Source: a virus
IMG/VR virus record: IMGVR_UViG_3300025154_000049
Coordinates: 64,001-128,000 of that record
Strand: one strand, 5' to 3'
Length of the DNA stretch: 64,000 bases
Below the pieces are notes generated by a model that was not told the DNA's origin, ran no database searches, and saw nothing but the letters and a program-made list of their open reading frames with translations. The position numbers were made by a program, and so were the translations under genes. Below, one piece after another: positions 303 to 59,664 of this stretch; the stretch's first letter is position 1; the number at the start of each line of letters is the position of its first letter.

Positions 303-590
303 TTTTGAATATAATAATTCGATGAATTCGTCAGATTTTATTTCTTTTATTGAAAATGTTGTCTCTTCTTCATTAGCATGTTTAAAAACTACATTTTTAC
401 CCTGTTTACTCATGGAAGATGTTATATTGAATGATTTAATATAATCATTTATAGAGTTCCATATATAGTTTTCTGCATCTTCGTAGCTAAAAAATGCTCC
501 TAGGAAAGATTCCTCTGTATAGAACTCGGAACCCATAGGATGAGTTCTATAGTCTATGGTAGTATCTTCTTTAATTACACAATAAATCAT
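291..590 (-). CDS. hypothetical protein
   Basis: 99 aa ORF, ATGA-coupled to upstream gene. Confidence 0.7.
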   Translation of the reverse strand: MIYCVIKEDTTIDYRTHPMGSEFYTEESFLGAFFSYEDAENYIWNSINDYIKSFNITSSMSKQGKNVVFKHANEEETTFSIKEIKSDEFIELLYSKFKL

Positions 591-940
591 AATAATTCCT
601 CTATGTATTTGACCTCTTCGTAGTAATCAGACCCATTTATAATACATCCTTTCATTTTTTGGATGTACTTCTTAAGAAAAAATTTAACTTTGGGATTTAA
701 TCTTATGAATTCTTCTAAACTAAGACTTTTCTTTTTAACGTTATTACAGAGAGTACAACAAATTAACAAATTATTTAAAAATGTATTCCCTCCCGATGAT
801 TTTGGAATCACGTGGTCTAAGCTTATCTTTCTTTTTTCGTCAAAAGACCTACCACAATAGCAACATTTAGCATTTACTTTACGTGCGTAGTCCTTTAACT
901 GTTTCTTAAGAGATTTTATTGGCTTTTTTGGTGTTGTCAT
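587..940 (-). CDS. HNH endonuclease
   Basis: CCYCG...SLDHVIPKSSGG...NLLICCTLCNNVK motif. Confidence 0.9.
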   Translation of the reverse strand: MTTPKKPIKSLKKQLKDYARKVNAKCCYCGRSFDEKRKISLDHVIPKSSGGNTFLNNLLICCTLCNNVKKKSLSLEEFIRLNPKVKFFLKKYIQKMKGCIINGSDYYEEVKYIEELL

Positions 941-1509
941 TCTACTAATTCCTTGAATACATTATATTGATTCCAAGATTCTTTTTGCATAGTAACTTTA
1001 CTCTCTACATTCCAAGAAGAAAAAGCTGTCTCTGGGGAATAGGAATAACTAACAGCACCTGTATTATTTTTAATATCCTTTAAAACACTCTCAAAAATAT
1101 ATAACTTATCCCACCATTTATTTTTTTCTATTAATTTACCTATTTCTTCTGCAACTAATCTTTTCTCCCTGCTATGATTTTCCAAGATAGTTAAATAGGA
1201 GGAACTAGATTTATTATTAAGTTTTTTTATGAAAGGAATTAAATCCTTTCTAATATTAGCTCTTTTCTTTCTTAGAACATCTCCAGACCTGTATTGTATT
1301 AATTCTCCCTTATCTAGTTTATCTATAAATTGAGGAGGAGTTAAATCACAATCAACAGCCTTCCAAATGTATCCCCCAGATTCGTGAATATTTTCTAATC
1401 TTATTACATTAAAGTCTAATGTACTTAAAGATTTTCTTATAGAACTAAGAGAGGAATATATAACATATCTAATTTTATTATTTTTGGAATATTTATATAT
1501 TTTTCTCAT
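937..1509 (-). CDS. hypothetical protein with C-terminal MxEL-type tag
   Basis: ends VFKELVE. Confidence 0.75.
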   Translation of the reverse strand: MRKIYKYSKNNKIRYVIYSSLSSIRKSLSTLDFNVIRLENIHESGGYIWKAVDCDLTPPQFIDKLDKGELIQYRSGDVLRKKRANIRKDLIPFIKKLNNKSSSSYLTILENHSREKRLVAEEIGKLIEKNKWWDKLYIFESVLKDIKNNTGAVSYSYSPETAFSSWNVESKVTMQKESWNQYNVFKELVE

Positions 1510-1904
1510 GATACTAATTCCCTTAACATTTTTAATCCGTTAATATCTTCTTCAGAAAGATAAGGGAGAGTATTATAGTTAGTAAGATATCCACTAAATA
1601 TTAAACATCTTACCAATTCTTTTCTAAGTTGTTTCAATGTTGTCCTGTTAGTTATTTCATAATCGGTAAATATTAATTCTGAAGAGTTAATATGGGAATC
1701 ATGATATATCTTATCTTTGAAGGATAATTTAAATTTATTATTAATATCAAAAACTATACTTTCCAATTCAGTAGTTCTATATTGGAAAGTTCCATAATGG
1801 TCAAATATCTTTTTTAATTCCTTAAAGACATTAAAATCTTTAAGTTGTCTGGAGAACAGTCTCTGACCGTTAATATTTAAAAGTATAAAATCCCTTAACT
1901 GCAT
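1506..1904 (-). CDS. hypothetical protein with C-terminal MxEL-type tag
   Basis: ends MLRELVS. Confidence 0.75.
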   Translation of the reverse strand: MQLRDFILLNINGQRLFSRQLKDFNVFKELKKIFDHYGTFQYRTTELESIVFDINNKFKLSFKDKIYHDSHINSSELIFTDYEITNRTTLKQLRKELVRCLIFSGYLTNYNTLPYLSEEDINGLKMLRELVS

Positions 1905-2158
1905 AATTCCTTCATACTTCTTTTAGTGTAGTATTCTAAACATTCATCCTTTTCAAAGTATTCTCTATGACCAGATACTAATAATTTTCCTAAGTATTGT
2001 AACTTGTTATCACAAAATTCAATAGGAAAATCTTTTTGTTTAAATCTGTCATGAAAATTATTTATATAAGTACATCTACAATTATCAGGTACTAAGGGAT
2101 AAATATTATTTAACTTGTTTCCATGTTTTTCTAAATAAACTCTACCCATTTGAAACAT
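1895..2158 (-). CDS. hypothetical protein with C-terminal MxEL tag
   Basis: ends SMKELCS; start may be further upstream. Confidence 0.7.
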   Translation of the reverse strand: MFQMGRVYLEKHGNKLNNIYPLVPDNCRCTYINNFHDRFKQKDFPIEFCDNKLQYLGKLLVSGHREYFEKDECLEYYTKRSMKELCS

Positions 2159-2260
2159 TTGTATATACCCACATAGCGACTAACCATAAATAATCTCCTT
2201 ATATGCTACATATTAAATATAGCATACGTTGATTTGAATTACAAGGGTTATTAACTTTTA

Positions 2261-2434
2261 TTAATCTAAACAATTGGGATTAAAGTCTCTAGGTATGATT
2301 AAATTGCAAGGTTTTATCATTCTTCTTTTGACAGTTCCACATTTTTTACAAGTTATTATAGGGTCTTCCATCATACCATGAACAATTTCTTCTTCAGTCT
2401 CACATTCGGGACACCAATAAGAATAAGTAGCCAT
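2261..2434 (-). CDS. FmdB-family zinc-ribbon protein (57 aa, not in ORF track)
   Basis: MATYSYWCPECETEEEIVHGMMEDPIITCKKCG...KRRMI. Confidence 0.8.
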   Translation of the reverse strand: MATYSYWCPECETEEEIVHGMMEDPIITCKKCGTVKRRMIKPCNLIIPRDFNPNCLD

Positions 2435-2987: not shown

Positions 2988-5201
2988 CTAGTAATAGAAT
3001 ATGTTAGCCACTACAGAAGAGACAGGTAATGTTATTTGAGTATTAAACTTTTCAGTAATTGCGGAATTGGCTCCAGTCCAACCACCCATAGCTAATCCAG
3101 AGTTTTGACCACCACATCCAGATAAGGTGATTCTAGCAGTTCCTAAAGAACTTGTGTTAGTCCAAAGAATACCATTAAATTTTTCTGTATTAGCAACATA
3201 AGAACCAGTGCTACCCCCAAAGTTTAAAGCGGAGGATTGTGTTCCACATCCGCTTAAATTAGTTCTTGCAGATACTAACGAAGAAGCGATAGACCAAGTA
3301 GCCCCATTGAATTTTTCCGTATTGGCTAAGACATCAGAACCAGTAGTAGTTCCTCCAGAACTTAATCCAGAGTTTTGACCTCCGCACCCTGCTAATACAT
3401 GTCTAGCCGTGTTCATATTACCAGTGGCAGACCAAGCAGTTCCATTAAATTTTTCAGTTACGTTAGATGTAGAGCCAGTGTTTCCTCCGAAGCTTAATCC
3501 AGAATTTTGAGTACCTGCCCCACCAAGTCCGTGTCTGGCGGTATTTAAATTACCAGTAGAAGACCAAGTAGAACCATTAAACTTTTCAGTTGCATTAGAA
3601 ACAGAACCAGTGTTACCTCCAAAACTTAACCCCACTGTCTGGGTTCCACAACCTGCTAGTAGATAACGAGTAGTGTTCAAATTCCCGCTATTAGCCCAAG
3701 TACTTCCATTAAACTTTTCAGTATTATTTAATATAGTGGAAGCGTTATATCCTCCAAAGCATGTTCCACTATTTTCAAATCCACAACTTCCCATAGCATA
3801 TCTAGCAGTATTTAAGTTACCTGAGCTAGTCCACACACCACCTATTACATCATCTAGGAAACCTAATGATGCTAAATCATTATGTTCTTCTTCTGTTAAT
3901 CCATTAGATAAAGGTCTTACTTCTACTGCTAAATAACAAGGACAATATATTTCAAAAGTATTTAAATCGTCTTTTAAGGTATCTACTTCTATTATGTCAT
4001 TATTACTACTTAGTAGATAATAAGAGAATAAAGGTTCTCCATTGAATTTTTCCGTATTGGCTAAGACACCAGAACCCGTATTACCTCCTCCAAAACTTAA
4101 TCCAGAGTTTTGTGTACCTGCTCCTCCAAGCCCGTTTCTAACTGTATTTAAGTTACCTGTATTAGACCAAGTATCTCCATTAAACTTCTCAGTTGCTCCT
4201 ACATAAGTAGTTGTATATCCTCCAAAACTTAATCCAGAGTTTTGTGTACCTGCCCCACCAAGTCCATCTCTAGCAGTATTTAAGTTACCTGTATTAGACC
4301 AAGTACTTCCATTAAACTTCTCTGTTACAGCAAAAACAGAACTAGTACTACCCCCAAAACTCAATCCAGAATTTTGAGTACCTGCTCCTCCAAGCCCACG
4401 TCTAGCAGTATTTAAAGAACCCGTGTTAGCCCAAGTAGAACCATTAAACTTTTCAGTTGTTGCTGAATAGGAACCAGCATATCCTCCAAAACTTAATCCA
4501 GAGTTTTGAGTTCCACATCCAACTAACTGATGTCTAGCAGTATTTAAGTTACCTGTATTAGACCAAGTATCTCCATTAAACTTCTCAGTTGCTCCTACAT
4601 AAGTAGTTGTATATCCTCCAAAACTTAATCCAGAGTTTTGAGTTCCACACCCAGCTAAAGCACGTCTAGCAGTATTTAAGTTACCTGTATTAGACCAAGT
4701 ACTTCCATTAAACTTCTCTGTTACAGCAGAAACAGAACCTGTGTTACCCCCAAAAGATAATCCAGAGTTTTGTGTTCCACATCCAGATAAGGAGACTCTA
4801 GTTGTATTTAAATTTTCGCTAGAAGACCATATATTTTTTACTAGGTTAGTTCCAGTATAGTTAGTTAAATTTATATACCTGTTACCAGAATCTGAAATAT
4901 AGAATTCTTTATACATAGCATCTACATCTAAAGATGTTATAGTTAAACTTCCCCCACCAGTTCCAGTATTTACTTGAGTCCATCCAGTATTTCCGCCATC
5001 GGATGTTTTTCTATATACATATCCAGTAGCAGTGTCTTCGTACAAGATACCTATATTGGCAGTAACGGCACCTTCAGGTGCCCCAGAATCTCTCAGAAAT
5101 GTAGCATTAATACCATTATATAAAGTATCAAAATCACTGTTTACCTGAGCAGATAAACTTATTGTATTTCCAGTAAAATCGTATGGTTTACTTAAAGTCA
5201 T
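2988..5201 (-). CDS. tail/virion protein with two six-bladed Kelch-like beta-propellers
   Basis: 2x6 repeats of ~44 aa (W-x-x-TGNLNTAR-x3-GCGTQNSGLSFGG-x8-TEKFNG); tail-fibre-like N-terminus; late promoter. Confidence 0.75.
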   Translation of the reverse strand: MTLSKPYDFTGNTISLSAQVNSDFDTLYNGINATFLRDSGAPEGAVTANIGILYEDTATGYVYRKTSDGGNTGWTQVNTGTGGGSLTITSLDVDAMYKEFYISDSGNRYINLTNYTGTNLVKNIWSSSENLNTTRVSLSGCGTQNSGLSFGGNTGSVSAVTEKFNGSTWSNTGNLNTARRALAGCGTQNSGLSFGGYTTTYVGATEKFNGDTWSNTGNLNTARHQLVGCGTQNSGLSFGGYAGSYSATTEKFNGSTWANTGSLNTARRGLGGAGTQNSGLSFGGSTSSVFAVTEKFNGSTWSNTGNLNTARDGLGGAGTQNSGLSFGGYTTTYVGATEKFNGDTWSNTGNLNTVRNGLGGAGTQNSGLSFGGGNTGSGVLANTEKFNGEPLFSYYLLSSNNDIIEVDTLKDDLNTFEIYCPCYLAVEVRPLSNGLTEEEHNDLASLGFLDDVIGGVWTSSGNLNTARYAMGSCGFENSGTCFGGYNASTILNNTEKFNGSTWANSGNLNTTRYLLAGCGTQTVGLSFGGNTGSVSNATEKFNGSTWSSTGNLNTARHGLGGAGTQNSGLSFGGNTGSTSNVTEKFNGTAWSATGNMNTARHVLAGCGGQNSGLSSGGTTTGSDVLANTEKFNGATWSIASSLVSARTNLSGCGTQSSALNFGGSTGSYVANTEKFNGILWTNTSSLGTARITLSGCGGQNSGLAMGGWTGANSAITEKFNTQITLPVSSVVANIFYY

Positions 5202-5775: not shown

Positions 5776-6846
5776 TTAAATTAATTCATATAACTTATTT
5801 TTTATAAGGAAATCAGCTATTCCACTTTCTCTCCCCACATATAAATTCATAGCTAGGGACATCTTATTATTTAATTCAGAAGTAGCTTTTATGGCATAAT
5901 CTTTTCTAGGTAAATTTTTATTAGTAGCATAGAAATTATCTATTTCCTGAATCAGTTCGTTGTACAAAACTACTAATTTTACCCTGAATTCTTCTAAATA
6001 CTTTAATAAATCTTTATCTTCTTTGAATAAAGGAAGTACATCGTCTAAACCATTACTTAAAATAAGTTCAGATAAGTGTTTTTTATTAGAAATACTATCT
6101 TTTACTCGATGTTTACGTACGTAAACATCGAGTAAAAGATAAATTCTCTGACCATTATCGAAAACTATTACAAACCCTTCTCTGCCAGAGGCAGTCTCTT
6201 GTAATTTAGCAACATCTTCTAAACTTATATTATATTCTTTTACAATTTCAAAAGGGCATCCCCCTAAGTCATGTACTGAATGATATTCTCCAGTAAACAT
6301 ATTTCTAAGAGCCAATAAAACCAATTTTTCTTCGGGATAAAATAAAACTATTTGGTTAGTGGGTGCTACATATTCCATAAGTGGGGTATAACCTTGATTA
6401 ATCCAGTAAGTACAAAAATCCTTAAACTCTTTACTGTTATTGATAATCTCAGTAGCTCTTTTAGATTGCTCCGATTCTATTGTTGATTTTGTCTTAGCAA
6501 GTATTTCACCGTCTGGAAGCATTCCGACGGTTATTAAAGAACCATCTACCTTCTCTGTGATGGATATAGGGGTCAATTTAGATACTAATAACTTGTCTGT
6601 GAAAGGATTTTCCTCATAATTAAAAAATTTTTCAAAATTAGTACAAAATAGTTCTATGTTTCCTTCTTTATCTTTTATAAATGTTTTACCTCTAGCTTCC
6701 AAAGCATTAGGAAGTAAGAAATCAGAATAAGAAGCTAATCTATAGTTAAAAGAAGTTAATTCGTAATCTTTATAAACCTGAACTGACTTTATAAAATTTT
6801 CATTAGTATCTACTAAATTTTGAAAAGAGTTGTAGTAATCTTTCAT
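5776..6846 (-). CDS. rnlA: RNA ligase 1 (T4 Rnl1-like), motif V altered
   Basis: EARG, KFFNYEE, EKVDGSL (motif I), EYVAPTNQIV, EGFV; expected KxK motif V reads IYLLL. Confidence 0.88.
   Translation of the reverse strand: MKDYYNSFQNLVDTNENFIKSVQVYKDYELTSFNYRLASYSDFLLPNALEARGKTFIKDKEGNIELFCTNFEKFFNYEENPFTDKLLVSKLTPISITEKVDGSLITVGMLPDGEILAKTKSTIESEQSKRATEIINNSKEFKDFCTYWINQGYTPLMEYVAPTNQIVLFYPEEKLVLLALRNMFTGEYHSVHDLGGCPFEIVKEYNISLEDVAKLQETASGREGFVIVFDNGQRIYLLLDVYVRKHRVKDSISNKKHLSELILSNGLDDVLPLFKEDKDLLKYLEEFRVKLVVLYNELIQEIDNFYATNKNLPRKDYAIKATSELNNKMSLAMNLYVGRESGIADFLIKNKLYELI
6096..6141. repeat. perfect 46-bp palindrome inside RNA ligase gene
   Basis: TATCTTTTACTCGATGTTTACGT|ACGTAAACATCGAGTAAAAGATA. 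Confidence 0.95.
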
Positions 6847-6857: not shown

Positions 6858-7334
6858 TTATGTTGTTAATTCCCGCATTGACAATCTTGTTAATAACCTA
6901 TTATAACATGGTAGATATGTTAAGTCAATATCTTTCTCTTGAATACATTTAAAATCTTTAACATTAATTAATATCTTGTCAAAACTATTAATTAATAGAA
7001 ATTCCAAGAAAGTATTTGTTATAGTTTCGTAGGATATATCATTTTTGAATACTGTTTTCCATATTTCTCTATCTTCAAAAGATAAACATCTCTCATTAAA
7101 ATAGTGTATTTCATAAGTAAAACTATTCCTATTTGCATTATTGAATATTTGATAGAGTATAAAAGGGTATTGGCTTACTCCCAATTCTTGGCATCTCATA
7201 CATTCAGTTAAGAAATCACCACAGTAATGTATTTTCTTAAATTGTTTTTCTGTTCTATAATTTTCATACTTGTACTTCAAAAATGAATATAGAATACCTA
7301 TAATTCCGCCTACTATAATTCCATTAAAAATCAT
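6858..7334 (-). CDS. membrane-anchored hypothetical protein with MxEL tag
   Basis: N-terminal TM; ends SMRELTT. Confidence 0.75.
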   Translation of the reverse strand: MIFNGIIVGGIIGILYSFLKYKYENYRTEKQFKKIHYCGDFLTECMRCQELGVSQYPFILYQIFNNANRNSFTYEIHYFNERCLSFEDREIWKTVFKNDISYETITNTFLEFLLINSFDKILINVKDFKCIQEKDIDLTYLPCYNRLLTRLSMRELTT

Positions 7335-8289: not shown

Positions 8290-8877
8290 TTAAAATTTAA
8301 CTTTACAAGACTTATCTATTCTAGTTAAAATACTAGCTCCACTAAATTTTTCATCTCCATTTAAGTTAATAAGAGCTTCTACTATACCTACTGCCTCTCC
8401 TTTACTATTTAATACTGGACTACCAGACCATCCTTTAGCTATAAAAGAGTCTGAGATAAGATAGTTGTTGGCAACTCCGAATATTTGACCAGAAGAAGAA
8501 CTAACACAATTATTAATTTTTATCCTATCTCCTTTTTTAATGGTACCTATAGGATAAGGAGCTATTCCTTCTGTATTTATATTTATAGTAGTTATAGTAT
8601 TAGTTAAATATTTAACTTGGTTCTGACTTATTAATCTAGCTTTGCCTTTAATATCTATAAAAACATATTTAAAATTATTATTTAATATATGGGTAGCTGT
8701 TATTATTTTATTTTTTCCAACAATAAAACCATGACCGTAGGCTATATGATTCTTATCTGCTACTCCTATAATTAGAACAATTCTATCGTCCTGACATCTT
8801 TTTAGAAGAATATCTTTGGCACAACATTGGGTAGTTAATAAAAAACAAAATAAAATAGACAGTAAAATTCTAAACAT
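8290..8877 (-). CDS. secreted trypsin-like serine protease
   Basis: signal peptide, GHGFIVG, TATH, GWSGSPV; catalytic Asp not obvious. Confidence 0.75.
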   Translation of the reverse strand: MFRILLSILFCFLLTTQCCAKDILLKRCQDDRIVLIIGVADKNHIAYGHGFIVGKNKIITATHILNNNFKYVFIDIKGKARLISQNQVKYLTNTITTININTEGIAPYPIGTIKKGDRIKINNCVSSSSGQIFGVANNYLISDSFIAKGWSGSPVLNSKGEAVGIVEALINLNGDEKFSGASILTRIDKSCKVKF

Positions 8878-10009: not shown

Positions 10010-10372
10010 CTAATCTATCAGTTCTTTTAGTACGAGATATTTATTGATATCCTCTTCATTTATATGCAACAGCTCAGTGGAGAACCTGTATCTAGTATAC
10101 GTTTTTATCATTTCTTTACCCAATAGCTCATTGTCTAACATAAATACAATTATTTTATTAAAAATATCCTGAATATCATCGTTTCTGACCTTATAGTAAC
10201 TAATCTCTATGTTATTCCCCCAGCTAAATCTTAGGGATACTTCAAAATTATCTATATCTAACCTATGTAGTATTATATCATACTTTCTATCGAGAGCTTT
10301 TATGGAATATAACAATTTGCTTAATGTAGGATTTTCTATAACAGTTGAAATCTCTATCTCATTAGGGTACAT
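10010..10372 (-). CDS. hypothetical protein with MxEL-type tag
   Basis: ends VLKELID. Confidence 0.75.
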   Translation of the reverse strand: MYPNEIEISTVIENPTLSKLLYSIKALDRKYDIILHRLDIDNFEVSLRFSWGNNIEISYYKVRNDDIQDIFNKIIVFMLDNELLGKEMIKTYTRYRFSTELLHINEEDINKYLVLKELID

Positions 10373-10374: not shown

Positions 10375-10959
10375 TTAATTGCCTGTGAGTTCTAGTAACA
10401 TACCTAATCTACATTTTAAATCCTCTGATAAATTTGAATTTTCTAAGATATTCTTTAATTGATAATTTTCTATTTGGTCATATCCTTCATTATCTAAAAT
10501 ATATTGAACTAACTCAGTAGGACACTGACCTATAAAAAATGTAAAAAAATTACTAAACGAGAAATCCATCAATCTAACATCAAACTTTGCTTTATTAAAC
10601 GCAAATCTATTTATTATTATATGAAGGATATCCTTTTCTGTTATATTGGTTCTTTTTAATTTTCCATGAAAAACTGTCCTAGTTATGAAACATTGAAATT
10701 CTTTATAATTCACTTTTTCTTTTGGAATATGTATTGTATGATTAGGTAACTCTATGTAATAATACCCAAGAGCTATTATCTCCGTAGCTTTGTTTGGTAT
10801 TATTAACTCAGAAGGGTCATTGTTATAATACTTTATCTCTTCTATCTGCATGGAAGATTCTAATATTCTTATATTTTTAGTATTACCTTTTATAGCATTA
10901 TTTCCATAATCCCTTGGTTTAATATTATACTTTTCCATAAAAGAAGCTAGGTTACTCAT
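10375..10959 (-). CDS. hypothetical protein with MxEL-type tag
   Basis: ends MLLELTGN. Confidence 0.75.
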   Translation of the reverse strand: MSNLASFMEKYNIKPRDYGNNAIKGNTKNIRILESSMQIEEIKYYNNDPSELIIPNKATEIIALGYYYIELPNHTIHIPKEKVNYKEFQCFITRTVFHGKLKRTNITEKDILHIIINRFAFNKAKFDVRLMDFSFSNFFTFFIGQCPTELVQYILDNEGYDQIENYQLKNILENSNLSEDLKCRLGMLLELTGN

Positions 10960-47605: not shown

Positions 47606-47865
47606 CCTATAAGTTCCTTTATCATTAGATGATTTTTATATTCAGTATAGGTCATACATTCGTAAGATATTAATCCCCCATCTTCAGAGTAGACATCAAT
47701 TACCTCTTGTATACTTGTGTATCGGGTATCGTGAAACTTACCTTGGTAATTGTACAAAACATACAAATATTTACTCCTACTCTTCTGTTTATAAATAGCA
47801 ACATCGTCAGCTTCATCACTGCTGAACCAAGGAGCACGTACTCTTAATTTGTGATATACCGTCAT
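47602..47865 (-). CDS. hypothetical protein with MxEL-type tag
   Basis: ends MIKELIG. Confidence 0.75.
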   Translation of the reverse strand: MTVYHKLRVRAPWFSSDEADDVAIYKQKSRSKYLYVLYNYQGKFHDTRYTSIQEVIDVYSEDGGLISYECMTYTEYKNHLMIKELIG

Positions 47866-48176
47866 GATGTTAATTCTTCCATAGTACCCATCGTCAATAC
47901 ATAGTCGTCCAATTCTTCTTCACTATCAAATTCAAATAGCTTTACCCTAGAATCGTATACCTGTTCCTCTACGAACCATCTTTCTAATTCAGAAATTCCA
48001 GAGAACTCAGTTCTTCTAAACTTATCTGGTTTCGTTTGTTGTTTATAGAATACTTTACCTTTCTTACTTATCTTATAAGTAGCCCAAGTATTACCGCTAA
48101 GTATTCTACTATCGGGGCAATATATTAAAGTATAGGAATTTAATTTTAGAAATCCTCTTATCTTTATTTCTTTCAT
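47862..48176 (-). CDS. hypothetical protein with MxEL tag
   Basis: ends TMEELTS. Confidence 0.75.
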   Translation of the reverse strand: MKEIKIRGFLKLNSYTLIYCPDSRILSGNTWATYKISKKGKVFYKQQTKPDKFRRTEFSGISELERWFVEEQVYDSRVKLFEFDSEEELDDYVLTMGTMEELTS

Positions 48177-48394
48177 GATATGAGTTCTCTCATAGTTTTA
48201 TAGTTATCTACCGCTTCCCAGAATTCCTCTTTGGTTATTTTAGTCCAATTCCTTTTAGCCAACTCACTGGAACCTGTTGTAGTTAGAGTATAATATTTTT
48301 TAGTAAATATCTCATTGATATGATAGCTATGTGTTAGCCCCCAGTCATTTATTAAATGGACATATCCATAAGGGTCTCTGTAATACTCCGACAT
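48173..48394 (-). CDS. hypothetical protein with MxEL tag
   Basis: ends TMRELIS. Confidence 0.75.
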   Translation of the reverse strand: MSEYYRDPYGYVHLINDWGLTHSYHINEIFTKKYYTLTTTGSSELAKRNWTKITKEEFWEAVDNYKTMRELIS

Positions 48395-48521: not shown

Positions 48522-48905
48522 TTAAGATACCAACTCCTTCATCATAAAGTAACTATTGTAGTGAGACTCGTTTTCAAACTCTAATAAGTCCATGTGAGGT
48601 TTTTCATAATAAACATGAGCGTACCCAAAATGCTTAGTTAGATAAGAAACCAGATGATTTACTTTTAAGCAATGCCATCTACCCTTATCGTCTTTAAGAT
48701 AGATACCGCTCTTATCTCTTTTTATAGCCAATTCTTTAAAGTCGTCATTTTTAAATAATGTGGTAGGGAAAGCTATAGCATAGAATTTACCTTCCTTGAA
48801 TAGCTCACTAGGAATTTTATAATTCTTAGTTATGTTAGATAGTTTAATCTTTTTGACTTTATTAGTAATTTTACTCATTCCGTTAGTTCCCGTATATGTT
48901 TCCAC
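48522..48905 (-). CDS. hypothetical protein with MxEL tag
   Basis: ends MMKELVS; true start likely MSKITN. Confidence 0.75.
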   Translation of the reverse strand: METYTGTNGMSKITNKVKKIKLSNITKNYKIPSELFKEGKFYAIAFPTTLFKNDDFKELAIKRDKSGIYLKDDKGRWHCLKVNHLVSYLTKHFGYAHVYYEKPHMDLLEFENESHYNSYFMMKELVS

Positions 48906-49111
48906 TTAGCCATACTTTCGTCATCTATCGTAAGACAATCATAGGGACAATGTTCTACTGCCTTTATTATCTTTAGTTCATTACCTTCTATGTTCTGCTC
49001 CTTTATCTCTATCAAGAAGAAAGAACGAGGGCTATCTATTAGAAAAACTTCAGGACAATAATACTCACAATGCTTACATAGTTGGCATTCATCTCCTATG
49101 TATATTATCAT
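48875..49111 (-). CDS. ferredoxin (single Fe-S cluster type) with MxEL-type tag
   Basis: CQLCKHCEYYCPEVF...AVEHCPYDCL; ends HIRELTE. Confidence 0.8.
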   Translation of the reverse strand: MIIYIGDECQLCKHCEYYCPEVFLIDSPRSFFLIEIKEQNIEGNELKIIKAVEHCPYDCLTIDDESMAKWKHIRELTE

Positions 49112-49458
49112 CTGACAAGTTCTTCCATAACTTTGATTTTATCTATCTCTTGCTGAATCATAAAATCGGGCATGTCGTGAAGTTTCTGAAAATCTTCTCC
49201 GCATAGATTATAAATTCGTTCTATTATCTTGAATTTTATTGCATCGGAAGTTATCCTAGATACATGAGAGTATAGAAAGGCTGTGCTTATACAATTAAAT
49301 ATCTCTTCCTCGTAGGTCTTCTGAACTATCAATTTTAATAGTTCAGTTCGTAAAGGGTCTGAAATACAATCATCTGTAAAGAATTCAATATTTATACTAC
49401 ATTGAATTTCACCATGTATACTATTAGTTATTTCTATATCTATCCTTGGATTTATCAT
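49108..49458 (-). CDS. hypothetical protein with MxEL tag
   Basis: ends VMEELVR. Confidence 0.75.
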   Translation of the reverse strand: MINPRIDIEITNSIHGEIQCSINIEFFTDDCISDPLRTELLKLIVQKTYEEEIFNCISTAFLYSHVSRITSDAIKFKIIERIYNLCGEDFQKLHDMPDFMIQQEIDKIKVMEELVR

Positions 49459-49910: not shown

Positions 49911-50153
49911 TTAATTACTTAACTCTAACATGACTAAAATACTTTCTAGTTCATCTAAACTTTCAAATTCTTTTATTATATTACATCTCCAATCCTTTTT
50001 AATAGTTGATAACACGTCTTCTCTACTTTGACCCTCTAATAAAGTATTTGCTTCCTTATTTAAACCAACATCTAATGCTAAATAAACCTTGTTATCTTTA
50101 AATTCATAAACAACCATAGCATCATTTAACCAACCTGTTAGTAAATAGCTCAT
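49911..50153 (-). CDS. hypothetical protein with MxEL tag
   Basis: ends VMLELSN. Confidence 0.75.
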   Translation of the reverse strand: MSYLLTGWLNDAMVVYEFKDNKVYLALDVGLNKEANTLLEGQSREDVLSTIKKDWRCNIIKEFESLDELESILVMLELSN

Positions 50154-50416
50154 AGTGTCAATTCTTTCATTACATAGTATTTAAATATACATTCTTCAAT
50201 TTCTTCCTTAGCTAGGAAAGACCAATCTATTAGTTGTTCCAAGCTTCGTTTACCATTACCACATTCAAGTAATTTATCTAGTCTTTCATCAGAAATACTC
50301 CAATTATTTTTACCTAAATAACACGACAATATCCCAGACCAAACATTTAATCTATAAAAGGACTTATAATTATAACCATTGTCAAATAAATAATATACGT
50401 AGTCTATAGGTTTCAT
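50150..50416 (-). CDS. hypothetical protein with MxEL tag
   Basis: ends VMKELTL. Confidence 0.75.
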   Translation of the reverse strand: MKPIDYVYYLFDNGYNYKSFYRLNVWSGILSCYLGKNNWSISDERLDKLLECGNGKRSLEQLIDWSFLAKEEIEECIFKYYVMKELTL

Positions 50417-50652
50417 AAAGTTAGTTCCAACATAGTAAGCATGATATTTACTCTATTCTCATCTTCTATTACTTCTCTTTTAATACCCTTTTTAGCCAGA
50501 TATAACATATCATCATAAGATTTTACCCACATTCCATCATCCTGCAATTTTTTATTAGAATAACGCTCAAAGAATACATATTTACCTTTTTCGTAAAAAT
50601 ATGTAGTATGCTTGATTCCTTCTATTATTTCTATAGTAATAAATCTTCTCAT
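50413..50652 (-). CDS. hypothetical protein with MxEL tag
   Basis: ends TMLELTL. Confidence 0.75.
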   Translation of the reverse strand: MRRFITIEIIEGIKHTTYFYEKGKYVFFERYSNKKLQDDGMWVKSYDDMLYLAKKGIKREVIEDENRVNIMLTMLELTL

Positions 50653-50882
50653 TTTATCATCTTATTCAAATTATCTAACAAGGATTTTATAACTGGGTCT
50701 TCATCTCTTTCGTTATCATTTTCTTGAATTAATTCTTTCATCATATCTGTTTTCAGCTTGATATTCTTCTCCCTAATATCGATATAGATATTTATAACGA
50801 GGGGTACCCCAACACAAGCCAATGTCATTATTATATAAACAGCAACTCCTATTCCGAAAGCTTCCATCATCTCCAATACCAC
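50649..50882 (-). CDS. membrane protein, sub-terminal MxEL motif
   Basis: TM then MMKELIQ. Confidence 0.7.
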   Translation of the reverse strand: MVLEMMEAFGIGVAVYIIMTLACVGVPLVINIYIDIREKNIKLKTDMMKELIQENDNERDEDPVIKSLLDNLNKMIK

Positions 50883-51148
50883 TCATCCCAGACTTCTGAT
50901 TCGTCTTGTGTCAATTCATTCATCATTCTTCTCTTAAGCATATCATTTTTGTATTTTCTTTCTTGTATCCAAAAATTAAGCATACTTATTCCCACAGTAG
51001 TAAAACATACTACCCAAGCCCCTATATGAGCTTTTTCACTATGCAGAGAATTAAGATATGCTATTATGGTACAACTAATAACACATTGTATTAAATTACC
51101 GTATTTCTTTATTTTTTCAATTTGTTTTTCGTTGAAAGTTCGTAACAT
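50867..51148 (-). CDS. membrane protein, sub-terminal MxEL motif
   Basis: 2 TM then MMNELTQ. Confidence 0.7.
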   Translation of the reverse strand: MLRTFNEKQIEKIKKYGNLIQCVISCTIIAYLNSLHSEKAHIGAWVVCFTTVGISMLNFWIQERKYKNDMLKRRMMNELTQDESEVWDEWYWR

Positions 51149-52603: not shown

Positions 52604-52993
52604 CTATAATTCTTCTATCTTTAGTTTAAATTTTTCTTCAAACCAATCAGCAAATATTCTTCTATGACAAAATTTATTCTTACCCTCATAGCAAAGAAAA
52701 AGATAAAGAGTTTTCTCCTTGTGCATTTGTTTTATTATATTTAATACTGCTCTGCCATCAGTAGAAGTTTCAAAATATTTTTCAATTCCTTTTATATACA
52801 TTTCTTTAAATTTATCTTTATTTATTGCTTCTGCTTTATGTAGATTAAATAAGGTTTCAGAAGGGTATAAACAGGGAAGTTTCCTAGCTTTATCTGTAAT
52901 TTCTCCTCTAGGGAAAGTCCTAGAAATTATAAATAATATTGTTTCTTTTGGAAATTTTCTCCAGTTAGCGTAATAGGATGTACAGATAGTCAT
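52604..52993 (-). CDS. DUF488-family protein
   Basis: TSYYA...ISR..P, LYPS, LCYE...FCHRRI. Confidence 0.8.
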   Translation of the reverse strand: MTICTSYYANWRKFPKETILFIISRTFPRGEITDKARKLPCLYPSETLFNLHKAEAINKDKFKEMYIKGIEKYFETSTDGRAVLNIIKQMHKEKTLYLFLCYEGKNKFCHRRIFADWFEEKFKLKIEEL

Positions 52994-52996: not shown

Positions 52997-53245
52997 TTAG
53001 TCCTTATGAAATTTATTACAATTACCACAATATTTATGTTGTACGTCCATTGGATGATAAGAAGTTTTATTGCAGATTAGACAAGTTATCCTAGGCATAA
53101 ATCTTAGGGTAGAACCTGCCATATCTATGAAATATGTTTTTTTATTTTCCACAGCTCTTCTCCTAGGAATATTATATATCCACGATATTAGATATAAAAA
53201 TGATATAGAAAATATTAATAAGAATAGTATAAAACTAGATATCAT
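52997..53245 (-). CDS. membrane-anchored zinc-finger protein
   Basis: TM + ITCLIC..TSYHPMDV..KYCGNC. Confidence 0.7.
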   Translation of the reverse strand: MISSFILFLLIFSISFLYLISWIYNIPRRRAVENKKTYFIDMAGSTLRFMPRITCLICNKTSYHPMDVQHKYCGNCNKFHKD

Positions 53246-53445
53246 GATACTAACTCCCTTAATGTCATATAAGATAAGAAATGGTCTTCATCTATTTCCT
53301 CTAACGACGTATAGGCTGATTTCATTGGTATACCAGAATGCTCCCAACTATGTTTAACTTCGTCCCAAAAGTATAGAAATCCAGTTGGAGAAGTCCTATA
53401 ATAGGAGGAGCCTAAATTAGTTGTATATTTAAAATATTTAGCCAC
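53242..53445 (-). CDS. hypothetical protein with MxEL-type tag
   Basis: ends TLRELVS. Confidence 0.75.
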   Translation of the reverse strand: MAKYFKYTTNLGSSYYRTSPTGFLYFWDEVKHSWEHSGIPMKSAYTSLEEIDEDHFLSYMTLRELVS

Positions 53446-53728
53446 TCACAAGTTCTCTCATTATTTTTAATTTTTCTATATCATGAGTATTGTCTATTAT
53501 TTTATAACCCATGTGAACTTCTAAAAAATTTCTTTTACCATAATTTTTAATATCACCGTTATGATTAATTATATACCAACCATTAGATGTATAGTTTCCA
53601 GTATAACTACTTACATTACATTTAATTAACCTAGCTAAATAATTTCCTTCTATCTTAATTATCATGACTTTACCATCTGGGTCATGAACTAAGTAGAAAG
53701 GTTTTCTTCTAAGACTTTCATCAGGCAT
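53438..53728 (-). CDS. hypothetical protein with MxEL tag
   Basis: ends IMRELVSG. Confidence 0.75.
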   Translation of the reverse strand: MPDESLRRKPFYLVHDPDGKVMIIKIEGNYLARLIKCNVSSYTGNYTSNGWYIINHNGDIKNYGKRNFLEVHMGYKIIDNTHDIEKLKIMRELVSG

Positions 53729-53987
53729 TTATATCACCTACTAATTCTTTCATAGCATGATAAGCTCGTATCTCATCTTTACACTGTTCTCTTGTAAGTT
53801 CTACAACGTGTCTATCTCCGAGAGGAGGAACACTATGAAAAGAAGTACACCAGCCGTTTAAATCATAACGATACATCATAGTATCAAATATCTTAGGATA
53901 CTTTTCTCGGTCGTCTGGATAAATCATATAATATTCCCAGATACCCCAGATGGTACAATATCTTTTACAGAATCTAACTCTGTCCAT
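53721..53987 (-). CDS. hypothetical protein with MxEL tag
   Basis: ends AMKELVGDINA. Confidence 0.75.
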   Translation of the reverse strand: MDRVRFCKRYCTIWGIWEYYMIYPDDREKYPKIFDTMMYRYDLNGWCTSFHSVPPLGDRHVVELTREQCKDEIRAYHAMKELVGDINA

Positions 53988-54600: not shown

Positions 54601-54807
54601 CTATTCCTTGTAAGTAATAAAGAAAGTTACGATATAGGAGTTAGCTTGATTGTAAGGAGATTTAATTCCTTCTATATTACTTTGTATTCCCAGTATCGAT
54701 TCCTCTGGGATATTAAATCTAGTTAATATTTCGTTCAAAGTCTCCGTAAGATTTTCATTATTAACATGATTCTTTACATTTACCGCTTCTTTTACAACTT
54801 TAATCAC
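54601..54807 (-). CDS. hypothetical protein
   Basis: 68 aa. Confidence 0.6.
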   Translation of the reverse strand: MIKVVKEAVNVKNHVNNENLTETLNEILTRFNIPEESILGIQSNIEGIKSPYNQANSYIVTFFITYKE

Positions 54808-55076
54808 AGGGTCTCCTCTATTAATTCACTCATAACTCTTTGTACATCACGTTTTTCATATTGAGATGCTTTGATATCTACTACCTCATCGAGAATTCCA
54901 TACATCCACATTTCATTAAACAAGTCTAATCCATAATAATCGAGCTGGTATCTCATAGCTTCTGCTATGTGTTCTTTTTCTCTTGGAGGAAGAGTTTTAT
55001 AATCTTCAGAGAAACTATTCATATTACTTATTGTGATTAACGGTAACACTATAACTAAACATCTCCGATAGAACAA
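54804..55076 (-). CDS. hypothetical protein with MxEL tag
   Basis: ends VMSELIEETL; start likely MNSFSE. Confidence 0.7.
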   Translation of the reverse strand: MFYRRCLVIVLPLITISNMNSFSEDYKTLPPREKEHIAEAMRYQLDYYGLDLFNEMWMYGILDEVVDIKASQYEKRDVQRVMSELIEETL

Positions 55077-55687: not shown

Positions 55688-55731
55688 GATACCAACTCTT
55701 TCATATATAAAAATCTACCTATTTCTTTCAA
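55684..55731 (-). CDS. 15-aa mini-ORF consisting only of the MxEL tag
   Basis: TTG-KEIGRFLYMKELVS-TGA, overlapping both neighbours by 4 nt. Confidence 0.5.
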   Translation of the reverse strand: MKEIGRFLYMKELVS

Positions 55732-55964
55732 GCTGTTAGCTCCCTTATCATTTTTACAGAATCTATAAAGATTAGACATTCTTCTTCTGTTATTTCATTA
55801 ACATACATATCGGGAATATAATTAGATATAGTCTTTTCAATATTATTTATAAAACACCACTCTTCATATTTAAAGTTGTAAAAATAAAGAAACTTATTAT
55901 CTCCATATAATTTATAGAAGACTTCAGGATTCGCTTTACTTTTAAAATATTTTATATGACTCAT
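55728..55964 (-). CDS. hypothetical protein with MxEL-type tag
   Basis: KYFK...EITEEE...MIRELTA. Confidence 0.75.
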   Translation of the reverse strand: MSHIKYFKSKANPEVFYKLYGDNKFLYFYNFKYEEWCFINNIEKTISNYIPDMYVNEITEEECLIFIDSVKMIRELTA

Positions 55965-56263
55965 CCGATTAGTTCATTCATAGCTAATAAACTGTCTATC
56001 TCTTCTTCTGTTATTTCATACATATCGTCGTTATCTATTAAACTGTTTATAAAACATTTATACAAGTCTTTACTAACTTCATTGTTGTATATTTCAATAC
56101 CACATCTTTTACCTTTGACATAATATCCAACACCGACCCATTCGTCTGTTTTGGGATTAAAGACTATAGCCACTTTACTATTCGTGGCAGGTTCATAATA
56201 GAATTTACTGTTAAACTCGTCCCTTTTAGGAATATGATTAAGTTTTATCATTATCTTCTCCAA
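55961..56263 (-). CDS. hypothetical protein with MxEL tag
   Basis: EITEEE...AMNELIG. Confidence 0.75.
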   Translation of the reverse strand: MEKIMIKLNHIPKRDEFNSKFYYEPATNSKVAIVFNPKTDEWVGVGYYVKGKRCGIEIYNNEVSKDLYKCFINSLIDNDDMYEITEEEIDSLLAMNELIG

Positions 56264-56603
56264 ATAAATATCTTATTGGAATTTTAACAGCATCCGCTAT
56301 ACCTTCACGTATTTTATTTAATTGACTGAGTTCAAAAAAGTTTTCTTCTTTAGGTTTGGATACTAATTCTACCATTACAAGAACAGCTTCTATTTCCTCT
56401 TCGGTTAGTTCAAAAGTAGTCAATGGATTAGCTTGTAAAAAATTTACAAACTCGTAATCCATATAAGATGACCTACACCATTCACCGTCTTTAAGAATAC
56501 ATATTGTATTAGAAGTACGAAAGTTAGCCCCACATCTTCTATAGAAGACGGGACTATCTTCATCATTGTTATATACACTTTTATAATATTTATATTCTTC
56601 CAT
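56238..56603 (-). CDS. hypothetical protein, internal MxEL motif
   Basis: ELTEEE...VMVELVS plus extension. Confidence 0.75.
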   Translation of the reverse strand: MEEYKYYKSVYNNDEDSPVFYRRCGANFRTSNTICILKDGEWCRSSYMDYEFVNFLQANPLTTFELTEEEIEAVLVMVELVSKPKEENFFELSQLNKIREGIADAVKIPIRYLFGEDNDKT

Positions 56604-56754: not shown

Positions 56755-57021
56755 TCATCCTATTAACTCCATCATACTTTGTTGTACTATACATTCTTCT
56801 TCAGTTATAAGCTCTGAGGTATAACTAGAATGATAATGTTTATTATATCCAGCCTCTGCTAATAAGTCAAACAAATTATACCACTCAAAACAAATAGCCC
56901 ATTGTTTACCCGTCCATACACGAAATATACTTTTATGGATAGTTGGGGTATATTGTATTAATTTAATCTTATTTATTTTATAATCTACCATAGTAACTTT
57001 AAAATATTTAACCACAGACAT
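56755..57021 (-). CDS. hypothetical protein with MxEL tag
   Basis: ends SMMELIG. Confidence 0.75.
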   Translation of the reverse strand: MSVVKYFKVTMVDYKINKIKLIQYTPTIHKSIFRVWTGKQWAICFEWYNLFDLLAEAGYNKHYHSSYTSELITEEECIVQQSMMELIG

Positions 57022-57702: not shown

Positions 57703-57993
57703 TTAATTTACAAGTTCCTCCATACTACGGACAGCAACCATTTCGTCTTCAGACATTTCAAATACCATGAAATCGTTCCAGAACCAATAGAAATTCCCTA
57801 GAGTTTTACTTCTTTCAAAGTCGTGGGGCTTATCAAAAGTTTCACTAAGGTTTACATAGTGTTTTTGTTCTTTTCCAGTTATAAAAATATTTTTATAAAA
57901 GCCATGTTTATGTTGGACGTAATAGTATTTATCGTCCCGCATGTCATACTTATAACCTTTTTCTTTACTGTCGTCAGAATATATTCTTATCAT
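57703..57993 (-). CDS. hypothetical protein with MxEL tag
   Basis: ends SMEELVN. Confidence 0.75.
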   Translation of the reverse strand: MIRIYSDDSKEKGYKYDMRDDKYYYVQHKHGFYKNIFITGKEQKHYVNLSETFDKPHDFERSKTLGNFYWFWNDFMVFEMSEDEMVAVRSMEELVN

Positions 57994-58220
57994 GAAGTTA
58001 GCTCCTGCATAGCTAAATAAGCAAAGTATTCTTCTTCTGTAGCTTCCCTGTATTGACCATAATAGTGTTTTAATAATTCTTCTAGGGTATAGCTGTTACT
58101 TTTATGTAAGTAACCTATTTCATTTGCATAGTAGAGTCTGCCATCCTTTTCAACATAAAATTCAAAATATCTGGCACCTTCATCAATAGGGAAGTCTTCT
58201 CTTATCCTAGCATATCTCAT
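57990..58220 (-). CDS. hypothetical protein with MxEL tag
   Basis: ends AMQELTS. Confidence 0.75.
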   Translation of the reverse strand: MRYARIREDFPIDEGARYFEFYVEKDGRLYYANEIGYLHKSNSYTLEELLKHYYGQYREATEEEYFAYLAMQELTS

Positions 58221-58549
58221 GATATTAATTCTCTCATCATTAATAAAGAACGTAACTCTTCTTCTGGATTATCCGTTTCTGGTTCGTAAAGAACTCCCTC
58301 ATATTTTTGACATTCGTGTGGATGATTACTGTCATGAAGATAGCATTCCCAATTGTCTTCATTTATAAATTTGAAAGTTCCTGTCTGATGCCAAATACCA
58401 TTATAGTCTCTCTTAGACTCTATTTGATAAGAAACTAATTTGAGTCTTTTTATTAAGATGGCTTTTTCAAACTCTTCATACAAAAGATAATATGTTTTAT
58501 TATAATCAAAGCTCCAAGCCTTTCTTAATAAGTCATCTATCTTTTTCAT
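58217..58549 (-). CDS. hypothetical protein with MxEL tag
   Basis: ends MMRELIS. Confidence 0.75.
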   Translation of the reverse strand: MKKIDDLLRKAWSFDYNKTYYLLYEEFEKAILIKRLKLVSYQIESKRDYNGIWHQTGTFKFINEDNWECYLHDSNHPHECQKYEGVLYEPETDNPEEELRSLLMMRELIS

Positions 58550-58779
58550 TTTGTAAGTTCTTTCATATATCTTCCTAAGTCTACTTTAGCATTTATCTCT
58601 TCAGAAGTCAATCCCCTATCAATAAGTTCTTTTTCTATAATCTCATAGTAACATTCTAAATCATAGTACTCTCTATTCATATAAGAACTCATACCAGATA
58701 ACTCATTATCTATCCAAACTAAATCAGATAATAAACTATCACTTGTCTGTTCTTCTATGTCTTGTAACATATTAGGCAC
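58546..58779 (-). CDS. hypothetical protein with MxEL tag
   Basis: ends YMKELTK. Confidence 0.75.
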   Translation of the reverse strand: MPNMLQDIEEQTSDSLLSDLVWIDNELSGMSSYMNREYYDLECYYEIIEKELIDRGLTSEEINAKVDLGRYMKELTK

Positions 58780-59317
58780 CTATAAGTTCTTCCATAGCAT
58801 GAAGACTTCTTAGAGCATCCTCGAATTTACAATATATTCTAGGAAGAGTCTTTATAAAATTAAAAACCTCAGACCCAGCTAAACTTGGATGACTAAAAGC
58901 ATAATCCCAACTATTCATATACCTGTCATTATTTCTACCAGTATAATATTCTATATTTTTACCATAAGAATCAAACCTAACTAGGTAATTTTTATCTTTA
59001 ATGTTAGCTAGAATATACTCTTCTCCAAGACCTAATTTTCTAGCAATATCATGTTCACATTCTACCCTATAGTATATATTCCAAATGTTATTAATGCCAG
59101 ATAACCATTCATCTAATTCTTTAGAAGTCTTGTTAGGTTTATAAATATTATCCATAGTACTGTCCCTATCGATAGAAGTATCAGAGACATTACCCTCTTT
59201 ATCATATAAATAATGAGATGCAATAGCAGAGAACTCAAGACCTTTTTCATTCTTAATTAATTCGTAGTATTCTTGGTCTACTGTGTATATGTTATGTACT
59301 ACACGAGAACTTTTCAT
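58772..59317 (-). CDS. hypothetical protein with MxEL tag
   Basis: ends AMEELIGA. Confidence 0.75.
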   Translation of the reverse strand: MKSSRVVHNIYTVDQEYYELIKNEKGLEFSAIASHYLYDKEGNVSDTSIDRDSTMDNIYKPNKTSKELDEWLSGINNIWNIYYRVECEHDIARKLGLGEEYILANIKDKNYLVRFDSYGKNIEYYTGRNNDRYMNSWDYAFSHPSLAGSEVFNFIKTLPRIYCKFEDALRSLHAMEELIGA

Positions 59318-59415
59318 TAGTTAGTAAGCTCCAACATCATGTATGTCCGACCAATGTATAGTAGCTTCGATGGGTTCCTCATATTCTTCTTCGTTATTAA
59401 TCATAGCTTATCTCC

Positions 59416-59664
59416 TTAGCGTATTAACTCTGTCATGGTTATTATTTTAGTACAGTCTTCTTCTGTTATTTCTTGTACCTGATTTACTTTTACCAATCTT
59501 TTTATTTTATCTGATATCCTATCATAAGGAACCGACTCTGCAAGAACTGTCCAATTATTTCTTTTATAATCATACATATAGGTATAGTCATCTTCATCTA
59601 CTTTATATAAGTAGTATCCAAATTCTAAATGGAAACTATTTCTTGGTTCTTTATAATATCTCAT
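59416..59664 (-). CDS. hypothetical protein with MxEL tag, probably leaderless mRNA
   Basis: ends TMTELIR; ATG 6 nt below -10 box. Confidence 0.75.
   Translation of the reverse strand: MRYYKEPRNSFHLEFGYYLYKVDEDDYTYMYDYKRNNWTVLAESVPYDRISDKIKRLVKVNQVQEITEEDCTKIITMTELIR

Follow-up and report, generated by a model that had tools for sequence, protein, structure and literature searches.

A shared C-terminal tail on about a third of the proteins of an uncultured groundwater phage

In an uncultured groundwater phage, roughly one protein in three ends in the same short peptide. The phage is represented by the 158,517-bp record IMGVR_UViG_3300025154_000049 (labelled G000), and the window analysed here comprises bases 64001-128000 of that record, a stretch of 64,000 nucleotides with approximately 30% G+C in which the minus strand codes for nearly all genes. 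The shared tail is about 19 residues long, lies at the extreme C-terminus and has the core [T/V/S/M]-M-x-E-L-[V/I/T]-x-COOH. Its conservation acts on the protein, not on the DNA. In our judgement there is an even chance that the tail is a shared recognition handle, read by a putative common partner. Coordinates below are those of the window, and genes lie on the minus strand, unless stated otherwise.

Extent and make-up of the tail

A strict tag was defined as M-x-E-L followed by one to five residues and the stop codon, and a loose tag as the same with L, I, V or K in place of Met. Among 151 genes called in the window by a greedy caller, 46 carry a strict and 15 a loose tag, which bears out the first-pass annotation of this DNA, where about 60 small open reading frames (ORFs) had been said to share the ending; tagged ORFs make up 60 of the 122 minus-strand ORFs of 260 amino acids (aa) or fewer. 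Two further tagged ORFs, one strict (81 aa, 27451-27696) and one loose with Leu for Met (67 aa, 53242-53445), were lost by the greedy caller and are visible in the raw ORF list. The former was displaced by a slightly longer plus-strand ORF (27414-27671), and the tag speaks for the minus-strand ORF as the genuine gene.

Over the whole genome, M-x-E-L plus exactly two residues ends 62 ORFs, compared with 0.03 in 200 shuffles, and M-x-E-L plus one to five residues ends 73 (0.23 in shuffles). A strict or loose tag is found on 106 of the 324 genome proteins (5.6 in shuffles), and the tail is present on approximately 100 ORFs when L, I or F is accepted at the Met position. The motif M-x-E-L occurs 83 times in all proteins, with two residues after the Leu in 62 cases and at a distance of at least 15 residues from the C-terminus in just 7. 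Tags are located between about 60 and 150 kb of the genome, the sole outlier being one strict tag at 50 kb. When positions were counted without reference to the motif, the 207 proteins of up to 260 aa encoded at 60-150 kb had Leu at -3 in 98 cases, Glu at -4 in 93 and Met at -6 in 64; the same count gave no C-terminal enrichment in the structural 0-60 kb part. The tagged genes form tandem arrays on the same strand and are similar in size.

Column conservation is limited to positions -13 to +5 relative to the Met and falls to zero farther upstream. The tail contains no Pro or Gly, its first half is acidic, and its isoelectric point is 4.4 compared with 7.8 in the bodies. Hydrophobic residues occupy positions -6, -3, -2, -1, 0, +3 and +4. 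Among near-tags the Met is replaced by L, I or F only, the Glu never becomes Asp or Gln, and the Leu is never replaced. The last residue is mostly S, N, G, E, D or T, so that the conserved residues sit at -6 to -2 from the end.

The bodies that carry the tail had been described as unrelated, and this description holds. Only one of the 106 tagged bodies falls in any BLAST cluster, weak BLAST similarity among them shows no excess over shuffles, and about 95% of tagged proteins match no Pfam or PHROG family; no family model in the PHROG and Pfam searches covers the tail itself. A 78-aa protein (48875-49111) has a 4Fe-4S ferredoxin domain at residues 6-65, whose alignment with a solved ferredoxin of 64 residues runs through to the last residue of the latter; the 13 residues that follow are the appended tail, with Ile for Met. 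Since column conservation stops at -13 and this ferredoxin ends 13 residues before the stop codon, the tail can be regarded as a module appended to unrelated bodies. The recognisable enzymes had been reported to be free of the tag, which is the case for most of them. Besides the ferredoxin, the exceptions are an Rnl1-type RNA ligase (356 aa, 5776-6846), an HNH endonuclease (117 aa, 587-940) and a DUF488-like protein (129 aa, 52604-52993), all with loose tags or tag-like ends that may be due to chance, in the ligase probably so.

Transmembrane segments are rarer in tagged proteins (3/106 versus 11/82, p = 0.0096), and where they occur the tail is on the K/R-rich, cytoplasmic side. An example is a strictly tagged 158-aa protein (6858-7334), whose tail is placed in the cytoplasm because a K/R-rich stretch follows its N-terminal transmembrane segment. 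Judged from sequence, tag carriers are therefore mostly orphan, soluble, cytoplasmic small proteins. The dense tagged operons are preceded by sigma-70-like promoters and the structural genes by TATAAATA late-type promoters, and it is because of the former that the tagged genes are considered early.

Selection on the tail and its variants between lineages

Several lines of evidence locate the conservation at the level of the protein, as the first-pass annotation had proposed. Near a stop codon the DNA pattern occurs 74 times in frame; frame +1 has 5 copies of it, frame +2 has none and the opposite strand, taken whole, has 9. All six Leu codons (TTA, CTT, CTA, TTG, CTG and CTC) are used in the tag in background proportions, and at the Glu the share of GAG is mildly raised, from 26% to 36%. 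Selection was examined in 21 pairs of tagged orthologues from G000 and its sister phage in IMG/VR (G004; capsid 99% identical), with the core taken as six codons. The rate of synonymous substitution (dS) was 0.556 in the tag core and 0.555 in the bodies, whereas the ratio of non-synonymous to synonymous substitution (dN/dS) was 0.079 in the core, 0.148 in the remaining tail and 0.191 in the bodies. The tail is kept even in orthologues that are just 58-59% identical overall, including those of three strictly tagged proteins of 255 aa (23881-24648, 59%), 99 aa (29215-29514, 58%) and 170 aa (39993-40505, 58%); the orthologue of a fourth (102 aa, 22747-23055) is 69% identical.

Between the tag Glu codon and the overlapping start codon (ATG) of the next gene, the spacing is that of a Shine-Dalgarno sequence. 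The motif might therefore exist for the downstream gene, either because a ribosome-binding site overlaps it or because the nascent peptide affects termination and re-initiation, with the peptide itself being functionless. Tags are enriched at coupled junctions, with a coupled to uncoupled ratio of 82/17 (83%) in tagged genes versus 45/23 (66%) in untagged small genes (odds ratio 2.5, p = 0.017). In a second lineage, represented in IMG/VR by G001-G003 (capsid 73% identical), GGAG is spelled by the x-E codons in about 80% of G001 tags, again at Shine-Dalgarno distance from an overlapping ATG; in G000 GAG is mildly enriched. Nevertheless, a purely translational signal is highly improbable, and its ribosome-binding-site version is already largely refuted. 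Synonymous sites in the core are as free as elsewhere, the Leu codons are at background, other reading frames lack the pattern, and conservation reaches 13 codons upstream of the Met. In G000 GGAG lies inside just 16 of the 62 coupled tags, and both Leu positions of the G001 tags are still encoded by four or five codons.

Seventeen tagged genes have no possible downstream start between -23 and +20 nucleotides. This applies to the strict tags at four operon ends that had been singled out earlier, namely 39993-40505, whose tag is kept in its 58%-identical orthologue, 46738-47058 (106 aa), 49911-50153 (80 aa) and 57703-57993 (96 aa). Conversely, 24 coupled junctions have no tag at all. Given these uncoupled tags, the small number of tags with GGAG and the tag-free junctions, the ribosome-binding site is a minor bias superimposed on the tag, in which the x-E codons do double duty, and is not the cause of the motif; that an overlapping site would be insufficient to explain it had been claimed from the outset, and the drift of synonymous sites agrees.

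Two other readings at the level of the gene were rejected. A recombination or cassette-shuffling junction, for which the promoter-stem-loop cassettes of phage T4 are the comparison case, does not fit, as fixed nucleotides number only about 10 out of 21 and synonymous sites drift. Read-through of TGA to give a polyprotein does not fit because the overlapping downstream genes sit in another frame. A scan of IMG/VR with the DNA spelling of one common tag plus overlapping start returned the sister phage and three single chance matches without tagged ORFs.

The tail differs between lineages in a regular manner. G004 has 70 pattern matches on one strand and shares with G000 the ending E-L-[VIT]-x. 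In an 18-kb sample of G001, 26 of 49 ORFs end in ..K-[YF]-L-M-x-x-E-L-L-K, in register with the G000 tail. Both tails have E at -13, hydrophobic residues at -12, -9 and -8, E at -4 and L at -3; they differ in the fixed Met, which is at -7 in G001 and -6 in G000, and in the end, which is L-K in G001 and [VIT]-x in G000. A third lineage (L026) has M-x-x-E-L-x-K and ends in E-L-[R/N/K/S]-K. Only four of the 49 ORFs in the G001 sample have any BLAST match in G000, and one of these four is tagged.

Two tagged genes keep their synteny in all lineages seen, and among tagged genes only these two were found to be conserved across lineages. Their ending depends on the lineage, being Y-E-L-I-S, Y-E-L-V-S or Y-E-L-N-K in verified orthologues (29% identity, E = 7e-18). 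An exhaustive profile search added about a dozen orthologues with mutual identities below 50%, nearly all ending in hydrophobic-hydrophobic-x-E-L-x-x with a varying last pair; E-L-N-K is the ending of both neighbouring paralogues in another lineage. Contigs of the more distant lineages are mostly 1-3 kb and too short for tag counts. Because orthologues follow the variant of their own lineage, these comparisons indicate that the tail core is old and widespread in the clade and that its ending changes in concert, true orthologues included. Four proteins of Bacillus phage G (L029, 404-445 kb), 135-191 aa long, have in common about 16 C-terminal residues that are rich in E-L-K/E and end in L-V-G or similar; they are probably a small paralogue family, and a proteome-wide tag is absent.

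Possible readers and competing explanations

A recognition handle is favoured because purifying selection maintains the same invariant residues on approximately 100 unrelated cytoplasmic proteins, with variants that change in concert by lineage. One common partner, encoded by the phage or its host, would grip the invariant Glu-Leu and the neighbouring hydrophobic residues, and would deal with the tagged third of the proteome collectively, perhaps to remove it at a given time, to remodel it or to recruit it. As a secondary role, the x-E codons would provide the Shine-Dalgarno sequence of the next gene. We infer binding to a common reader, the identity of which is speculative, and the tails may share one reading partner or associate among themselves. 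A more specific and more tentative proposal, which we think possible, is a proteome-scale address code, in which a third of the proteins would be handled as a class by a reader devoted to them, for which the metallopeptidase-vWA/MoxR machine of the phage itself is one possibility. The whole early arsenal could for example be cleared or remodelled at a set time, and co-evolution of tag and reader would give each phage lineage a private variant. A peptide address that docks diverse cargo onto one hub had been suggested before; the protein-level, modular and concerted tail is as that suggestion predicted, whereas the hub is hypothetical.

A number of observations weigh against a recognition handle. 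No reader of the tail was found, and there were no TPR, PDZ, Clp or Lon-type domains in the 25 families listed out of the 29 that 100 further untagged proteins matched. The tail had been called an acidic amphipathic helix; its first half is acidic, but its helical hydrophobic moment equals that of other 15-mers, so that the term amphipathic is unsupported. In the only confident model of a tagged protein (mean predicted local distance difference test, pLDDT, 94.9), an all-helical solenoid, the tail is the ordered last helix, which means that it may pack on its own body and not hang free. The early timing of the tagged genes is only probable, deduced as it is from promoter-like sequences. Moreover, no homology can be detected between the early proteins of G000 and those of G001, so that expansion of different founder genes in each lineage could imitate some of the co-variation; just two orthologous gene families speak against such mimicry. 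The vWA/MoxR pair of jumbo phages has been proposed to act in virion assembly (PMC7824862). The pair also occurs in the N4-like phage EC1-UPM and in Bacillus phage G, and the samples of these two phages that were analysed have no proteome-wide C-terminal conservation.

Some of these points could also be explained if one or a few ancestral genes were duplicated and their bodies diverged until only a structural C-terminal helix remained recognisable, with no reader involved. The helix would then be needed for folding or self-association of each protein, and the lineage endings would mark which founder expanded. We regard such a relic of a gene family as rather unlikely, although it is the strongest competitor of the recognition handle. 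The tandem same-strand arrays of similar-sized genes are consistent with it, as are two weak paralogue pairs among the G001 tagged genes, the tail as ordered last helix in the one good model, and the lack of detectable orthologues between the early regions of G000 and G001, which fits very fast turnover. However, similarity among the 106 bodies is no higher than in shuffles, and the fold types differ, comprising a ferredoxin, Cys-rich zinc-ribbon-like proteins, a helical solenoid and a beta-rich prediction. The bodies are under ordinary purifying selection (dN/dS 0.19) with no runaway divergence, and nothing would oblige a helix packed on unrelated cores to retain one and the same Met, Glu and Leu across 100 proteins. 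Furthermore, true orthologues older than the lineage split still take the ending of their lineage. Foldseek found no match to the solenoid model better than E = 2 in the PDB, and a single-sequence fold of another strictly tagged protein (100 aa, 55961-56263) was unusable (mean pLDDT 49).

As for a reader of the favoured handle, the only lead is positional and comes from a module at 44-51 kb of the genome, outside the window (loci L003:8000-15000, L026 and L028), which is syntenic in at least four lineages. In order, it encodes a small Cys-rich zinc-ribbon protein, two tagged helical-repeat proteins, a metallopeptidase-vWA protein and a MoxR ATPase (AAA_3), followed by a 350-aa protein of unknown function (PHROG 2319), two small ORFs and a GGACT-like protein; as a whole it looks like a multi-part MoxR-vWA system. 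The two tagged genes sit directly upstream of the vWA gene, one of them having the only strict tag at 0-60 kb of the genome. They look like tandem paralogues of each other, which would also suit descent from a duplicated ancestor. One tagged protein (129 aa, L003:14431-14817, minus strand), the solenoid modelled above, is built of a helical repeat of about 29 residues for which there is no Pfam model. The same repeat recurs 3-12 times in hundreds of longer, tail-free metagenomic proteins (about 990 database proteins).

The vWA protein is conserved in G001, and its HExxH motif and complete MIDAS (adhesion site that depends on a metal ion; DxSxS, T, D) are invariant in 78 homologues. A MIDAS draws its sixth ligand from the target protein (PMC13036017), and the invariant tail Glu would be available as an acidic metal ligand. 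vWA domains have been proposed as peptide catchers for MoxR (PMC7159879). In known clients of MoxR AAA+/vWA pairs, such as NorQ-NorD and the Rea1-MIDAS ligands, an acidic side chain completes the metal site (PMC13036017, PMC7159879), and here an invariant Glu, never Asp, is found together with an intact-MIDAS vWA protein and a MoxR flanked by conserved tagged genes. The known pairs differ in having one or few clients rather than a third of a proteome, and the pair found in this phage is also present in tag-free phages. A predicted complex of the full metallopeptidase-vWA protein (with Mg and Zn) and a 36-residue tail alignment gave a score of 0.01 (mark 0.32), which counts neither for nor against binding. 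On balance, the module is a doubtful candidate for the reader.

A different reading starts from the capsid genes. The phage encodes a distant T4-type Gp23 capsid protein (HK97-type fold) and an S77 prohead protease, and the M-x-E/Leu junction could be a site for this or another protease, with the tail targeting proteins to the procapsid for delivery to the next host. The six conserved core positions fit the size of a P4-P2' protease site, and late-protein leaders end in [LIV]-x-E in both lineages, which the M-x-E of G000 resembles. The capsid-targeting sequence of T4, with its gp21 cleavage site, is likewise a short terminal peptide on unrelated proteins with hydrophobic-x-Glu at its end, and T4 resembles this phage in its type of capsid and of prohead protease. 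It is, however, N-terminal, present on a handful of late proteins and removed whole, whereas the tail described here is C-terminal and on approximately 100 probably early proteins. A cut after its Glu, three residues from the end, would take off just those residues and leave the tail in place. In G001 the P3-equivalent is mostly Thr (T-x-E), although the late leaders of that lineage keep [LIV]-x-E. In addition, tagged genes follow sigma-70-type and not TATAAATA late promoters, and about 100 cargo species are implausible for one capsid. Processing or packaging of this kind is thus very unlikely.

The window also encodes a trypsin-fold (S1) serine peptidase of 195 aa (8293-8877), which is unusual for a phage and might be counted in favour of proteolytic processing. 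It is 93% conserved in G004 and absent from G001, a genome of the 73% lineage that is approximately 90% complete; this absence counts against a processing role, and for the same reason the peptidase was rejected as a reader.

Relation to known terminal tags

Shared terminal tags are a recurring theme in cell biology, as in degrons, secretion signals, and organelle and encapsulin targeting. Encapsulin cargo-loading peptides are similar in layout, as an extreme C-terminal peptide on unrelated cargo, ferredoxin-like proteins included, docks onto a partner with the HK97-type fold; this phage too has an HK97-type capsid protein and a C-terminal peptide on unrelated bodies. The encapsulin consensus is rich in Gly, Ser and Leu and serves one to few cargo proteins, whereas here the peptide is acidic with M-x-E-L and is carried by approximately 100 proteins whose genes look early. 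Degrons and adaptor tails of AAA+ proteases, such as ssrA and SspB, also bring many unrelated proteins to one machine by a C-terminal peptide, and a degron would suit timed removal of early proteins. However, ssrA-type degrons need non-polar last residues and a free carboxylate, while the phage tail ends in a variable, mostly polar residue and has its key residues 3-6 positions before the end.

The polymerase-docking tails of T7 gp2.5 and gp4 and the clamp-binding tails of T4 are cases in which different phage proteins share a C-terminal tail for one hub, but these involve 2-4 functionally linked proteins and not about 100 orphans. In the Dot/Icm system of Legionella, one machine reads a C-terminal signal, roughly 20 residues long with a Glu-rich block and with hydrophobic residues close to its end, on hundreds of unrelated proteins. 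That signal is loose and compositional, whereas the phage motif is fixed; the phage yielded no sign of a secretion system, and there would be no obvious purpose in exporting its early proteins.

Literature searches for an equivalent phage system found no published description. The first-pass annotation had stated that no described phage system is like this one, and to that extent the statement stands, although the principle of shared terminal tags is known elsewhere. New aspects are the scale, at a third of the genes, together with the motif itself and variants that are private to each lineage; no described tag covers a third of the genes of a phage. The tagged orphan early proteins are probably host-takeover or counter-defence factors, and the tail would mark such otherwise unannotatable proteins in metagenomes. 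If a reader exists, the clade shows a virus managing a large and fast-changing set of orphan early proteins as a group, and tail and reader could become a portable tagging pair. The lineage-specific variants constitute a natural co-variation experiment for finding the reader. Descent of approximately 100 genes from one ancestor with only the terminal helix kept, if true, would also be instructive about the birth of phage orphan genes.

Tagged genes and other features of the window

The remaining tagged ORFs are spread over most of the window. Strict tags are present at 1895-2158 (87 aa), 12186-12404 (72 aa), 12401-12967 (188 aa), 16749-17039 (96 aa), 22520-22750 (76 aa), 23052-23309 (85 aa) and 23595-23879 (94 aa), and then in a run at 24684-25055 (123 aa), 25055-25450 (131 aa), 25447-25767 (106 aa) and 25764-26120 (118 aa). 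Further strict tags follow at 28154-28480 (108 aa), 28483-28884 (133 aa), 38780-39229 (149 aa), 39226-39525 (99 aa) and 40505-40996 (163 aa). Beyond these lie 47055-47396 (113 aa), 47396-47605 (69 aa, with a Cys-rich body), 47862-48176 (104 aa), 48173-48394 (73 aa), 49108-49458 (116 aa), 50150-50416 (88 aa) and 50413-50652 (79 aa), and the series is completed by 56755-57021 (88 aa), 57990-58220 (76 aa), 58217-58549 (110 aa), 58546-58779 (77 aa) and 59416-59664 (82 aa). Strict tags in uncoupled genes are found at 13459-14055 (198 aa), 26881-27222 (113 aa), 39551-39805 (84 aa) and 48522-48905 (127 aa).

The distance from the Leu to the stop codon varies in several strictly tagged ORFs, with three residues at 53438-53728 (96 aa) and 58772-59317 (181 aa), four at 28874-29215 (113 aa), and five at 17026-17403 (125 aa) and 54804-55076 (90 aa); at 53721-53987 (88 aa) the tag is followed by six. 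Loose tags with Leu for Met occur at 1506-1904 (132 aa) and 38481-38783 (100 aa), and with Ile for Met at 47602-47865 (87 aa) and 55728-55964 (78 aa). Others are at 10010-10372 (120 aa, no coupled downstream start), 10375-10959 (194 aa), 14059-14352 (97 aa), 37164-37445 (93 aa), 43310-43627 (105 aa) and, as a weak case, 33656-33937 (93 aa). The in-frame sub-terminal copies reported earlier are present at 19984-20484 (166 aa, about 47 residues from the end), 50649-50882 (77 aa, 26 residues), 50867-51148 (93 aa, 14 residues) and 56238-56603 (121 aa, 41 residues), and another is at 17636-17878 (80 aa, 42 residues).

Larger untagged proteins include a six-member paralogous family (43763-45766, 31341-32150, 34458-35969 and 62119-63947, and genome 23259-23690). 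One member, over a quarter of its length, shows about 33% identity to a Pseudomonas phage PA5oct protein labelled 'structural protein'. A TATAAATA late-type promoter is present at one member, so late genes lie scattered between the tagged operons. Three paralogues of about 740 aa (2991-5201, and genome 53050-57518) have no Pfam match. A PHROG scan, run with the window copy only, gave a match to PHROG 27227, which is of unknown function.

The phage also encodes sheath and baseplate proteins, GroES, Pth2, SpeD, thymidine kinase, RtcB and two RNA ligases, and its DNA is present in sequencing runs of about ten groundwater, soil and sediment studies, with no RNA run listed among those containing it. 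Its closest cultured matches by capsid protein are just 37% identical. The 158.5-kb record, which is without terminal repeats, is probably an incomplete version of the genome, because the sister G004 is 190 kb long with direct terminal repeats. No DNA polymerase was seen among the families found in the record, and approximately 30 kb, perhaps with replication genes or a reader, may be absent from it.

A Mom-family protein (21761-22348, E = 3e-35) adjoins RtcB (20496-21698) and suggests modification of DNA bases. A 213-aa protein (36427-37065) has a prokaryotic N-terminal methylation motif of the type IV pilin-like kind, which is odd for a phage. A lone tRNA-Trp gene lies at 23304-23381. At 59791-61175 on the minus strand, 14 tRNA genes stand in an array, after which ARAGORN calls a tmRNA that it marks as permuted.

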